Assembly (NCBI GenBank): GCA_045577735.1
Contig: JAZNIY010000025.1
Span: 48,964 to 112,963, forward strand
Origin: Candidatus Stercoripulliclostridium sp.
GTDB lineage: Bacteria > Bacillota > Clostridia > Christensenellales > DTU072
DNA: 64,000 nucleotides
Direction of reading: 5' to 3'
The position numbers and the translations under genes were made by a program. Below, in pieces: positions 11,056 to 13,449 of the stretch (position 1 is the stretch's first letter; every line of letters begins with the position of its first letter). A model generated the notes under the pieces. The model was given only the letters and a program-made list of their open reading frames with translations, was not told the DNA's origin and did not search any database.

Positions 11056-11295
11056 TAGTTGGTAAATATACTTGAACGCAATGCGTTCACTTTCGCCAGG
11101 TTTTTGCTTAGCAAAATGCCAAACTTGTTTTGGCTATAATGTGAGCAACGCGAACTATAATTTGAACGAAGTGAGTTACTCGCAAAAACTTGCGCACCCC
11201 GTTTGCTTTGCAAAAGGGGTAAGTGCTCGCCTTGTCTCCACCGCACACAAAAGAAAAAGACGAACTTTAAGTTCGTCTTTTCGTGTGTGGTGGAG
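11056..11295. repeat. Structured non-coding 'head' element, copy 1
   Basis: ~105-bp core near-identical to 13152-13257 and 63351-63457; several hairpins. Confidence 0.9.
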
Positions 11296-11462
11296 TGCCG
11301 ACAAACATAATCGAACACTTATATATGTGAGATTATCGTATCATATATTTACCCAATTCTCAATTTCTATTTTATATCATTTTTTTAAAGAATTAATTTG
11401 GGGAACTATGTCGTGTTTTTTTCGTTTAAATATGAGTGGCGGAGGGCGTAACAAGAAACTAT

Positions 11463-12227
11463 TTATTTTTTGTTTTGTTTTACTAGCTTTTTCCCAATCT
11501 TTTGAAACACTTCTTTTGTTACCTTAACATCCGAAATCATTAGAATTAACACTATAACAATAATACCAAAGGCTGTTAAAGTTATATATTGGGATACACC
11601 AGGTATTATAAAAGGCAAGCCACTCCTATAAAACATATAATCTCCGGTTAATCCAAGAACATGTATATCAATGACTTCACAATTTATAAAATGCAAAAGT
11701 GTGCCGAGGAAGGTCCATCCGAAGTCCTTAATATTCGGCACATATTTTTTACTTGCATACTCAAACACGGGAATAAAGAGTAATCCAGTATGTTGAAGCA
11801 CACTCTTGAGAATAGGAAACACAAAAACAGTATTGCAGAAAATTCCATCTGGCATGGCGAACGTCAATATCCCACCAATAAATCCAAACAAATAAAACAT
11901 TTTTTTCATAATCTTGTTATCAAGCAATGCCGCAATTGGCACTAGGATGCCATTAAGATTACAAGGATACATTGGATATAAATCTATCCATGGGGATTTG
12001 TTGACGGTTATGTATATAATTCGCCAAAAAACCTCAAAAGCAAATTGGAACCCTGCTATGCCAATAAGTATTTTCCTTTTGGTTACGTCAGATATTTTTT
12101 TATTTGCTCCAAGTATTGCACAAATGCTCACACCGACTAAAACGACCACAATCACCACCAAATGCATTGTTTGGTATTCATATGCCCCGGGTGTGCCCAT
12201 ATTGCCATTAAACCAATTTTTGATCAT
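11463..12227 (-). CDS. YwaF/TMEM164-like integral membrane protein (cargo)
   Basis: Multi-TM; LYPMYPCNL, QHTGL, DYMF motifs; AAGGAGG RBS. Confidence 0.65.
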   Translation of the reverse strand: MIKNWFNGNMGTPGAYEYQTMHLVVIVVVLVGVSICAILGANKKISDVTKRKILIGIAGFQFAFEVFWRIIYITVNKSPWIDLYPMYPCNLNGILVPIAALLDNKIMKKMFYLFGFIGGILTFAMPDGIFCNTVFVFPILKSVLQHTGLLFIPVFEYASKKYVPNIKDFGWTFLGTLLHFINCEVIDIHVLGLTGDYMFYRSGLPFIIPGVSQYITLTAFGIIVIVLILMISDVKVTKEVFQKIGKKLVKQNKK

Positions 12228-12574
12228 ATTGATAATCCTCCTTGTCTTTAATGTATCTTAATAAATATAATATCACATTTTTATTGCAAAACAAACAATT
12301 TTATTTTCTAGTATTAAGTTAGAATAATAGTTATTTAGTGTCGATGGAACTTTTAGGAGAGATTTAGACTTAAGGAATATTAAAAATGAGCATTCACATT
12401 TATCGTCTATTTAATAGTATGGATATATTCCTAAATAAGCCAACAAGAATGAGTCCCGATGAAAATGGTTTTTTGTTGCCTTTTGGCATAAGAGCCTAAC
12501 ACACCCCATTCTCATATCAAGAGGCTTTCGTGGCATAAAACGTTGTTGCTACTTTTGAAAAATATCCAATAAAA

Positions 12575-12624
12575 CGAACACTTAAAATACGCACCAATAT
12601 ACCAAATATATAAATTGGAATTTG
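12575..12624 (-). repeat. Cassette-unit tail, diverged copy lacking the CTCCACCA end
   Basis: CGAACACTTAAAATACGCACCAATATACC...AAATTGGAATTTG. Confidence 0.75.
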
Positions 12625-12635
12625 TAATTACGCTA

Positions 12636-12965
12636 TTATTGTTTGTTATTCTTTTCGATCGTAATACTTGATACAATAGCATATATGAGAGTAATGATAA
12701 CAACCGCTACACCCACGAAGGAAATCCAATATGCTTCAAGCAACACAGCGAGAGCGAGCAATAAAAAGACGATTCCAAACAGTAAAAAAACAATAGCCGA
12801 TTGGCGATAATATGGCTTTTTATTCATTTTCTCACGTTCTTGCTTCGATGCATAGATGTAAGCATTGTTAAAAAGAAACCCCTTTTCCATAAAGGATCTG
12901 ATACTCATGAAAAACAAAAAAACGGATACTGCAAAAAGAATACTTGCAATAATAATTTCTTTCAT
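12636..12965 (-). CDS. Small three-TM membrane protein, DUF3784-like (cargo)
   Basis: EKGFLFNNAYIYASKQEREKMNKKPYYRQS loop between TM helices; GAGGTG RBS. Confidence 0.65.
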   Translation of the reverse strand: MKEIIIASILFAVSVFLFFMSIRSFMEKGFLFNNAYIYASKQEREKMNKKPYYRQSAIVFLLFGIVFLLLALAVLLEAYWISFVGVAVVIITLIYAIVSSITIEKNNKQ

Positions 12966-13060
12966 TATCTGTCACCTCTACAAATTCTTATTTATCTATC
13001 AAATCTTTTTTAAATATACCATATAAGAACAAAAAACTCAATAACTATAATATAGGGACG

Positions 13061-13403
13061 GTGGACGATAACGGACCGCGAAAGACTGTCTCGCGTAATG
13101 TGAAATATGTAATTAAGTTTGCAACACGTAATAGTGGCAATTGGTGGAATATACTTGAACGCATCGCGTTCACTTTCGCCAGGTTTTTGCTTAGCAAAAT
13201 GCCAAACTTGTTTTGGCTATAATGTGAGCAACGCGAACTATAATTTGAACGGAGTGAATATAATTCAAATTCGCATTTTTTAGACTCACTTACGCTCGAA
13301 TTATAGTTACTCCGTAACATTATAATCAAATTCTTGCGAATTTGACGCTGTCTCCACCGCACACAAAAGAAAAAGACGAACTCTAAGTTCGTCTTTTCGT
13401 GTG
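13061..13403. repeat. Structured non-coding 'head' element, copy 2, directly abutting the tRNA 3' end copy
   Basis: Shares its left part with 63260-63457 and its terminal hairpin with 11230-11295. Confidence 0.9.
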
Positions 13404-13449
13404 TGGTGGAGACAAGGGGAGTCGAACCCCTGACCTCTTGAATGCCATT
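13404..13449 (-). repeat. Prophage att site: 46-bp duplicate of the tRNA-Ala 3' half
   Basis: Identical to 21955-22000. Confidence 0.95.

Follow-up and report, generated by a model that had tools for sequence, protein, structure and literature searches.

What allows single-gene cassettes to accumulate behind a tRNA gene when no integrase lies among them? The question is raised by a stretch of 64,000 nucleotides from Candidatus Stercoripulliclostridium sp. (contig JAZNIY010000025.1, positions 48,964 to 112,963; hereafter the window), in which an array of cassettes anchored by a tRNA-Ala gene carries two copies, heads A and B, of a non-coding module that begins with a terminator hairpin and an inverted copy of the tRNA 3' end. 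tRNA genes are classic landing pads for genomic islands, and to our knowledge the landing of islands there has always been ascribed to site-specific integrases encoded by the element. Analysis of the assembly (G000; 1.96 Mb in 28 contigs, completeness 97.6%) and of related genomes gives an even chance that the head is a genus-specific, non-coding, trans-mobilised insertion or docking module for tRNA 3' ends, with arms that set or preserve the site.

The first-pass annotation of the window had described a long inverted repeat at 13349-13414, its outer arm complementary to the 3' end of tRNA-Ala. Both pairing and folding bear this out: 13349-13368 and 13395-13414 form an arm pair of 20 nt with 90% complementarity, inside which lies a perfect stem of 12 nt, and the RNA of 13345-13418 on the minus strand has a folding energy of -42.2 kcal/mol against a shuffle mean of -16.4 (z -8.2, equalled by 0 of 200 shuffles). 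The inner hairpin of head A (13370-13398), a GC-containing stem with a T-tract, has the form of an intrinsic (Rho-independent) terminator, as does its counterpart in head B at 11254-11282. Such a terminator accounts for the inner hairpin only; the outer arm, which in head A sits past the T-tract, is left unexplained by it, and so are the core and a sense copy of the tRNA end (S2) at the far side. The 13-nt match of 11230-11242 to tRNA-Ala is an exact inverted copy (GGTGGAGACAAGG); the window has exactly three occurrences of this sequence, 11230-11242(-), 13405-13417(+) and 21956-21968(+), with a chance expectation of about 0.02 matches and three copies reached in 0 of 100 shuffles. That the partner of this arm has been replaced after GGTGGAG is also correct, given that at 11289-11295 GGTGGAG is followed by TGCCGAC, the tail of the preceding unit (repeat family D4). 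In the copy near 63515 the arm is indeed another one, which matches tRNA-Val(GAC), the anchor of that array, at G000:C25:116378-116453, about 3.4 kb past the window end. Three things had been overlooked, namely S2, the conserved folded core, and the status of the "tRNA" that adjoins the array at 13404-13449, which is only a 46-nt remnant; the intact tRNA-Ala(GGC) is at 21955-22030(-). The parts of the array are as follows.

21955-22030, minus strand: intact tRNA-Ala(GGC), the true anchor of the array (ARAGORN, Rfam).
13404-13449, minus strand: tRNA-Ala 3' remnant, 46 nt, its end CTCCACCA at 13404; 100% identical to 21955-22000.
13359-13403, minus strand: terminator hairpin of head A, with stem-loop 13370-13398, an outer CACAC/GTGTG stem and a T-tract.
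13349-13358, minus strand: antisense arm of head A, GGTGGAGACA on the minus strand, complementary to the last tRNA-Ala bases.
13059-13348, minus strand: core of head A with covarying hairpins (model match G000:C25:62019-62238); TATAAT-rich insert at about 13186-13348, AACCTGGCGAAAG at 13173-13185, GAGACAGTCTTTCGC at 13059-13073.
13041-13058, minus strand: sense copy S2 of head A, Val-type and not Ala-type, GGTCCGTTATCGTCCACC, equal to tRNA-Val positions 59-76.
12575-13040, minus strand: cassette after head A, with a promoter-like site (13013-13041), an open reading frame (ORF) for a DUF3784 membrane protein (12636-12965), a conserved tail part (12584-12627) and repeats D2 and D3.
11312-12574, minus strand: cassette with a TMEM164-like acyltransferase ORF (11463-12227; Pfam), nested in the tail at the repeated TAAGTGTTCG.
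11288-11321, minus strand: tail of unit A, ending GGCACTCCACCA, the final 8 nt being those of tRNA-Ala (D4, four copies in the window).
11243-11287, minus strand: terminator hairpin of head B, 98% identical to that of head A (-36.7 kcal/mol, z -7.6).
11230-11242, minus strand: antisense arm of head B, the exact 13-nt complement of the tRNA-Ala 3' end, continuing with mismatches to about 11224.
10986-11229, minus strand: core of head B, with the first hairpin, the long-form insert, AACCTGGCGAAAG at 11090-11102 and GAGATAGTGTTTCGC at 10986-11000 (model match G000:C25:59936-60159).
10968-10985, minus strand: sense copy S2 of head B, decayed Ala-type, GTCACCCTTGTCGACACC.
10429-10967, minus strand: cassette B, with a promoter-like site (10916-10944), a glyoxalase-like ORF (10508-10870) and a tail (10429-10509) ending CTCCACCA.
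9522-10428, minus strand: cassette C, headless, with promoter-like sites and an ORF with HTH_3 and zinc-ribbon domains (9598-10257); D6, 89%.
9522-9602, minus strand: tail of cassette C, ending CTCCACCA.
63255-63599, minus strand: head of the tRNA-Val array, with a Val-type arm at about 63503-63530 and S2 at 63261-63277.
63557-63599, minus strand: tail ending CACTCCACCA, ahead of the tRNA-Val array head on that strand.

Cassette tails thus end in the last bases of the tRNA (CTCCACCA at 11288, 10429 and 9522, and at about 63566 in the Val array; D4), and in the Ser-GCT array a tail end TCCGCCA precedes the second head. The cassettes have promoter-like sites of their own with an extended -10 element. 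The antisense arm of head A is only 10 nt long, being interrupted by the inserted TATAAT-rich module.

The architecture holds well beyond these two copies. Read in the direction of the tRNA, the tRNA 3' end (S1) is followed by the terminator hairpin, the antisense arm A, hairpin 1 (CACCC...GGGTG enclosing TTTGCTTTAGCAAA), GGTGCRYWAGTT, hairpin 2, AACCTGGCGAAAG, hairpin 3, a TTAC-RW-G motif, GAGACAGTCTTTCGC and S2. Hairpin 2 is either short or carries a TATAAT-rich insert of about 85 nt; the module, all of it non-coding, is about 215-290 nt long with a core of about 200 nt, and from the tRNA end to the core anchor there are 96-119 nt, or 169-185 nt with the insert. In most types S2 begins at tRNA position 59, in both Leu types at 61; it reaches the CCA end (18 nt) and is preceded by a constant CTTTCGC[G/T] that resembles the T-loop TTCG. 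Arms matching at 18 of 18 positions are found as A in the Val head of genome G015 and as S2 in the Asn head of G000 and the Ser-CGA head of G020. S1, terminator and A together form one uninterrupted hairpin, of up to about 40 bp in the case of G015 Val, and A can alternatively pair with S2. The TATAAT-rich module, about 85-170 nt and partly palindromic, lies inside hairpin 2 of long-form heads (Gly, Leu-CAA, Pro, Ala, Val and Ser-GCT; in the window at 13186-13348 and 11103-11189), and it also stands alone, behind a terminator in the tRNA-Asn array (L003, G000:C13) at about 430-600; a possible identity is a second miniature element or else a promoter block.

Heads are a family tied to tRNA genes. 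A BLAST search of the heads against the whole assembly gave matches on many contigs, every one of them just downstream of a tRNA gene called by ARAGORN, and a covariance model built from ten short-form heads gave 22 matches in G000, of which 21 lie behind a tRNA gene and on its strand. The tRNAs concerned are Ala-GGC, Val-GAC, Gly-CCC, Leu-TAA, Leu-CAA, Pro-CGG, Asn (two loci), Ser-GGA, Ser-GCT, Thr-GGT, Arg-CCT and Glu-CTC, with a weak match behind Arg-ACG; a single orphan head, truncated, is on contig C19. Several of the genomes compared being incomplete, the family was present in 18 of 21 other species of the genus, at 0-26 copies each, and the covariance model found it in none of 19 genomes from other genera of the family or order. 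Among the matches listed in a pattern scan of named records for the exact core motifs, only those from Candidatus Stercoripulliclostridium and from sheep-gut Clostridia metagenome-assembled genomes look real, and most of the remainder look like chance. With Rfam 15, only the tRNA and a ZTP riboswitch reach the gathering score in the window, and at permissive E-values heads and variants gave only a sub-gathering match of the transfer-messenger RNA (tmRNA) model to the tRNA 3' remnant, besides hairpin and microRNA noise. A hammerhead-like CUGAYGAG...GAAA string seen by eye in variants from G004 and G012 is without Rfam support. A word-based search of full-text literature, which did not cover subscription journals, found no description of such modules.

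Other repeats occur behind tRNA genes as well. In G000, about 400 nt downstream of tRNA-Ser(TGA) are nearly the same as those downstream of tRNA-Ser(CGA) (G000:C17:106280-106700 and G000:C19:85470-85890), a further tRNA-linked repeat but no head; in G012 (contigs C8 and C9; L087, L091) units with GGCGGTCATGTAC...TTTGTACACTCCC, again a different repeat family, lie behind tRNA-Pro(CGG) and behind a cluster-final tRNA (Tyr).

Both arms follow the tRNA behind which they lie. For 46 heads at no more than 200 nt from a tRNA gene, drawn from G000 and nine related genomes and covering 16 tRNA types, the cognate tRNA was the best or joint best local-alignment match of the 16 types for arm A in 37 cases and for S2 in 39, with about 3 expected by chance; given that the genomes are related and the heads not independent, these counts are descriptive and do not amount to a P-value. 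The misses are mostly decayed copies, for example the Thr heads. Co-variation of the arm with the anchoring tRNA, which the first-pass annotation had put forward as the check on its idea of target specificity, is hereby demonstrated, and for two arms instead of one. A tree of the cores with the arms removed also groups by tRNA type, needing 39 label changes (the minimum possible being 16; four rows with fewer than 120 core bases were left out) against 58.9 in shuffled labels, a number that none of 200 shuffles matched or undercut. tRNAs whose 3' ends resemble each other (Ser-GCT/TGA/GGA, Val/Ala and Leu-TAA/CAA) account for the surplus changes, and it is between such tRNAs that target switches occur. 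Across species, the heads behind any one tRNA are mostly orthologues in this tree.

Selection has kept the fold of the core, and it is the tRNA-sense strand that folds. In 82 covariance-model matches, aligned by fitting to the structure of the model, standard pairs fill 94.4% of 1774 cells against 80.6% in column shuffles, a value reached by 0 of 500 shuffles; 18 of 23 core pairs show changes on both sides, and sliding the 3' partners by 1-3 columns lowers pairing to 30-48%. There are 100 G-U/U-G cells in the core and 20 A-C/C-A cells, and the folding strand is therefore the tRNA-sense strand. RNAalifold, applied to a plain MAFFT alignment of ten heads, returned the same helices with 10 of 23 pairs compensatory. 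The unpaired motifs AACCTGGCGAAAG and GAGACAGTCTTTCGC are invariant. A role of the head as a promoter was rejected, as no consistent promoter-like site was found in the heads (22 in the region against 17.5 in shuffles).

That modules of this plan insert is demonstrated by a sister family with a different core. In G009, tRNA-Leu(CAA) is followed directly by its own terminator, an empty site; in G008 two tandem units stand between the corresponding tRNA and a homologue of the G009 terminator, a filled site. In each G008 unit, a terminator and an arm antisense to the T-loop and T-stem precede a GC-rich core of about 95 nt, unrelated to that of the heads, and the tRNA end is then repeated without mismatch over 21 nt. 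This second core also lies behind tRNA-Pro(CGG) of G008, in two copies with a perfect 21-nt S2, and behind tRNA-Ser(CGA), and the arms at Pro and Ser match their respective tRNAs. The near-identity of the tandem copies suggests recent activity. Further variants occur in G004, G012 and G013, and the plan of terminator, antisense arm, core and sense copy is common to at least two unrelated cores. The loci of the second core family are listed here.

L088, L220 and L221, on G008 contigs C57 and C37: second core family.

The Ala array of G005 shows what belongs to the unit. There, tRNA-Ala is followed by an Ala-type head, the orthologue of head B in G000 with S2 matching at 18 of 18, and then by a complete Val-type unit (terminator, 18/18 Val arm, core and Val S2) of the type that is found behind tRNA-Val in G015; this unit meets the Ala-type end through the shared TCCACCA only. 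It follows that the unit runs from terminator through A and core to S2, that S2 is carried by the element and moves with the unit instead of arising as a target duplication, and that the junction is at the extreme end of the tRNA sequence. A crossover in the T-loop, by which the element would donate the tRNA 3' end and S2 would be the displaced original, fits the start of S2 at position 59 and the T-loop-like TTCG before it; this model is contradicted by G005, because it predicts the opposite order of Ala and Val copies.

In the window itself, the array has been parted from its anchor by an integrated phage-like element. The only tRNA called by ARAGORN is tRNA-Ala(GGC) at 21955-22030(-) (Rfam tRNA, 68.3 bits), and 13404-13449, for which ARAGORN makes no call, is an exact 46-nt duplicate of its 3' part, 21955-22000 (repeat family D9). 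These exact direct repeats border an element of 8.5 kb (13450-21954), of which 13404-13449 is the far attachment-site repeat, and the array therefore no longer abuts a functional tRNA-Ala. Besides small membrane proteins, the element encodes the following.

20875-21873, plus strand: tyrosine integrase (PHROG integrase, E 7e-44).
13472-14512, minus strand: Rep_1 rolling-circle replication protein (Pfam/NCBIfam/PHROGs matches).
14610-15656, minus strand: Zot-like P-loop protein, weak (Pfam/NCBIfam/PHROGs matches).
19625-19828, plus strand: repressor (Pfam/NCBIfam/PHROGs matches).
19838-20617, plus strand: NERD nuclease (Pfam/NCBIfam/PHROGs matches).

The element, which integrated in tRNA-Ala and so displaced the older array by 8.5 kb, is probably a small prophage of filamentous-phage-like type from a Gram-positive gut anaerobe. 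Its 46-nt repeat reaches the anticodon arm, and it has no head. In metagenome runs X1 and X7 contig cover of 13450-21954 is patchy to nil.

Whether the array is a time-ordered record, as had been proposed, receives a divided answer. The unit with head B had been thought to have once abutted the tRNA and to have been pushed outward, and this is probable: the orthologous head lies directly behind tRNA-Ala in G005, which makes the same position of head B very likely for an ancestor of G000. On either side of unit A (13403 to 11288) stands a 63-nt direct repeat that consists of tRNA end, terminator and arm, with 98% identity between the copies and CTCCACCA included (D7). Growth strictly next to the tRNA has only partial support, as chimeras, internal gain and loss, and reshuffling are found too. 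Head A is itself a chimera: its terminator and 10-nt arm are Ala-type, and its 3' half, its S2 and the start of the next cassette are near-identical to the tRNA-Val head of G015, as would be expected from recombination between adjacent heads like those in G005. A second Ala(CGC) head in G015 likewise joins a CGC-type arm to a head-B-type S2; the Val-type unit of G005, which is patchy in its distribution, lies farther from the tRNA than the Ala head, which is widely shared, and the glyoxalase cassette ORF that follows head B in G000 follows the Val head in G005. Strain variation had been predicted to be tRNA-proximal, and contigs of four gut metagenome runs from four studies, in which stretches without contig cover were not counted as evidence, also show internal gain and loss of cassettes and changed order. 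A contig of run X1 joins 11311 to 12575, skipping 1263 bases and with them the TMEM164-like cassette (11312-12574), at a joint where 10 bases fit both sides, the short side is 20 nt and the repeated TAAGTGTTCG lies within the tail; the DUF3784 ORF is replaced or lost in X1 contigs, run X5 has a joint from 10426 to 13052, and run X6 a changed cassette order. The distal flank, 7022-9363, is conserved in the same contigs. The variation extends beyond the tRNA-proximal side, which the first-pass annotation had named among the results that would count against it. Recombination and shuffling in arrays are demonstrated.

How might such a module work? The favoured reading is that it would supply four parts, namely a terminator, an 18-nt antisense arm A (tRNA positions 59-76), a folded core and an 18-nt S2. 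Insertion would take place directly behind, or within, the last bases of the tRNA, which would stay intact and terminated, and S2 would re-create the tRNA-end site at the far end of the module for further cassettes. Behind it, promoter-bearing single-gene cassettes with tails ending in the last 7-8 bases of the tRNA could pile up, and the predicted outcome is an integrase-less, strain-variable array. The recombination site would be the palindrome of tRNA end, terminator and A, or the A:S2 stem, in folded or single-stranded form like integron attC and the attP of CTX phage, a form that is favoured because of the S1-terminator-A hairpin, the alternative A:S2 pairing and the one-strand fold of the core. 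An enzyme would presumably act in trans, with homology between arm and tRNA end setting the target, and once heads are present, homologous recombination between conserved cores may also move cassettes.

The search for an enzyme or a carrier is where a trans-mobilised docking module meets its greatest difficulty. G000 has three tyrosine recombinases (that of the prophage-like element, a 357-aa protein on C5 and a 300-aa Xer-like protein on C19), one large serine recombinase and one IS200-type TnpA; it has 0 matches to the IS110 DEDD-type transposase (PF01548) in an assembly 97.6% complete, and, apart from the integrase of the prophage-like element, no integrase ORF or fragment was found in the arrays examined. 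The Xer-like gene (G000:C19:68056-68958; L011/L093) adjoins the orphan head, divergent from a Ser-type tail and the truncated head; its protein is below the XerC and XerD cut-offs and scores 107.9 bits with the integron-integrase model TIGR02249 (26 bits for the prophage-like integrase; cut-off 265). A link to reverse transcriptase was dismissed, the sole match in G000 being a plant Ty3-type-like polyprotein on a 1777-bp contig (C11), probably contamination of the metagenome-assembled genome by a dietary-plant retrotransposon. Among phages and plasmids, blastn with one 215-nt head gave no match, and no IMG/VR contig has an exact-pattern match to heads; three candidate matches to heads were found among JGI metagenome contigs.

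Several observations weigh against the favoured reading. No recombinase linked to heads was found in G000, and an unlinked enzyme is the main weakness of any mobility model. As candidates, the Xer-like recombinase is limited to 5 of 22 genomes and, in G005, is not adjacent to a head, and TnpA has homologues in 8 of 22 genomes of the genus and was not found in the head-rich G005, G015, G011, G002 and G020, several of them incomplete. No circular or excision junctions were seen, and a lagging-strand bias in the orientation of head-bearing tRNAs relative to GC skew was not found (8 versus 5, not consistent). Many arms are decayed; the heads at each tRNA are largely orthologous and movement is therefore rare; and lineage-specific compensatory change between A and S2 was not found, as A:S2 pairing is -20.1 kcal/mol within a head and -19.8 between heads of the same tRNA type. 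Given the chimeric heads, homologous recombination alone can explain much of the shuffling, and the metagenome joints rest on short sides (20-36 nt) and may derive from paralogous arrays or from other species.

A bolder form of the docking reading, which seems unlikely at present, would make the head the recognition module of a programmable, nucleic-acid-guided insertion, its arms pairing with the tRNA 3' end and the principle being shared by at least two independent cores. As single-stranded DNA or as RNA, the module would dock itself and its cassettes through a host or trans-acting enzyme and not a site-specific integrase, and a new arm pair would mean a new target.

It is rather improbable that the head is instead a structured non-coding RNA, a cis-regulatory leader or a small RNA, whose spread to many tRNAs was secondary. 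Made by tRNA read-through or from a putative separate promoter, such an RNA might use A and S2 as a closing stem, or pair with the tRNA 3' end or its fragments, and it would agree well with the conserved sequence and structure, the many compensatory changes, the sense-strand G-U excess, the invariant unpaired AACCTGGCGAAAG and GAGACAGTCTTTCGC, the terminator of its own behind some heads and the co-orientation of downstream genes. Yet a strong terminator hairpin with T-tract opens every tRNA-adjacent head, so that about 20 nt, with no promoter in evidence, separate it from the core, the cassettes have promoter-like sites of their own, and even permissive thresholds give no Rfam match; tandem copies, chimeras, the transfer of a Val unit to an Ala end and an unrelated core with the same architecture are not explained by it.

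Distinctly improbable is the view that heads are decayed attachment scars (attL/attR plus arm regions) of integrase-carrying islands or phages, functionless remnants like those of cis-mobilisable elements. The likeness to tandem islands at tRNA and tmRNA genes is real and includes repeated integration at the same end, partial tRNA repeats as unit borders, and units without an integrase. In tycheposons, integrase-bearing newcomers push older elements outward at tRNA genes, a tandem accretion that speaks for this view (bioRxiv 10.1101/2020.12.28.424599), and units without an integrase are reported to occur in the ssrA islands of Dehalococcoides (PMC3146451) and in the accretion of cis-mobilisable elements and integrative and mobilizable elements (PMC5704250). 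Units here are indeed bounded by direct repeats of the tRNA 3' end (D4, D7, D9), and a genuine integrase-bearing element sits inside the same tRNA-Ala. But that resident uses another repeat, of 46 nt, and has no head; an integrase-bearing element with the same attachment site as the units was found neither at tRNA-Ala nor in the other arrays examined, and within the arrays there is no integrase or fragment of one. Moreover, whereas tandem islands of that kind rest on a cognate site-specific integrase for one attachment site, here a folded module of about 250 nt serves 16 tRNA types; classical integrases are site-specific, and one core lies behind all these different crossover sequences, selected for base pairing beyond protein-binding boxes and accompanied by an antisense arm that classical attachment sites lack.

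Very unlikely, finally, is that heads and tails are mere portable homology, with arrays changing by homologous recombination alone (for instance after DNA uptake) and the arms being relics of one ancient duplication per tRNA: the chimeric heads with breakpoints inside the core (head A of G000, the second Ala(CGC) head of G015), the one glyoxalase cassette behind different heads in G000 and G005, and the location of metagenome joints in repeated modules all fit, but one core family behind 16 tRNAs with arms matched to each, the empty and filled sites with a perfect 21-nt duplication in the second family, and a whole Val-type unit on an Ala-type end through 7 shared bases do not.

As a docking module for tRNA ends, the head has partial counterparts among known systems. 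Integrons hold arrays of single-gene cassettes at one docking site, where newcomers can push older cassettes outward, and their attC junctions are imperfect palindromes whose one-strand structure matters. The arrays here are alike in being cassettes at one docking site with junction palindromes and one-strand structure; they differ in lacking both an adjacent IntI-type integrase and an attI/Pc platform, in being anchored by a tRNA 3' end, in the large sequence-conserved junction core with tRNA-copied arms, and in cassettes with promoter-like sites of their own, integron cassettes being mostly promoterless. The junctions, too, differ from attC in being tails that end in the last 7-8 nt of the tRNA, together with heads, and no RYYYAAC/GTTRRRY boxes were seen in the sequences read, although no formal attC model was run. 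The attP(+) of CTX phage is folded single-stranded DNA with two inverted copies of the target, integrated by XerCD at dif; inverted target copies pair there to rebuild the target duplex, as those of tRNA end, terminator and A, or of A and S2, would here, but in CTX the target is dif and the enzyme is known, whereas heads have many tRNA-end targets and one core.

Elements of the IS200/IS605 type have hairpin ends, insert strand-specifically 3' of a short target through an internal guide of 4 nt, and have non-autonomous copies that are mobilised in trans. Heads resemble them in bearing hairpins and in strand specificity, and may do so in target recognition by base pairing and in mobilisation in trans; they differ in putative guides of up to 18 nt instead of 4 and in that TnpA does not co-occur with heads. 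The bridge (seek) RNA of IS110/IS1111 is a folded non-coding core with variable segments that match the target. A conserved folded core whose specificity could change by a segment swap is shared, but both variable segments of a head are complementary to each other and represent the same target bases, and the guide loops of bridge RNA are different. The primer-binding site of retroviruses and long-terminal-repeat retrotransposons, 18 nt complementary to the tRNA 3' end including CCA and ending next to position 58, is matched by the 18-nt complement in heads, which differ in having no associated reverse transcriptase and in the additional presence of a sense copy. None of the sources compared describes a conserved folded module reused behind 16 tRNAs, antisense and sense 18-nt copies of positions 59-76, or such arrays with no integrase in cis.

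The implications depend on which role the module has. If the arms set the target, the head would be a retargetable docking device that would explain the flexible gene arrays of small-genome gut Clostridia; if the module is RNA instead, it belongs to a large family, so far undescribed, with ties to tRNA 3' ends. Either reading gives a concrete and testable handle.

A few features of the window and of other arrays deserve mention in their own right. The conserved distal flank encodes a TIR-domain protein at 7580-8686(-), a possible defence gene, and a CrtO-like acyltransferase at 8798-9265(+). Beside the TIR-domain gene, runs X1 and X6 skip 366 bases of 7146-7513 between 30-nt direct repeats (7147-7176 and 7513-7542), which is a strain-level indel. 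Other arrays contain large unannotated ORFs of 660, 381, 500, 398 and 501 aa. A ZMP/ZTP riboswitch (RF01750, 56.6 bits) at 26858-26940(+) is unrelated to the heads.

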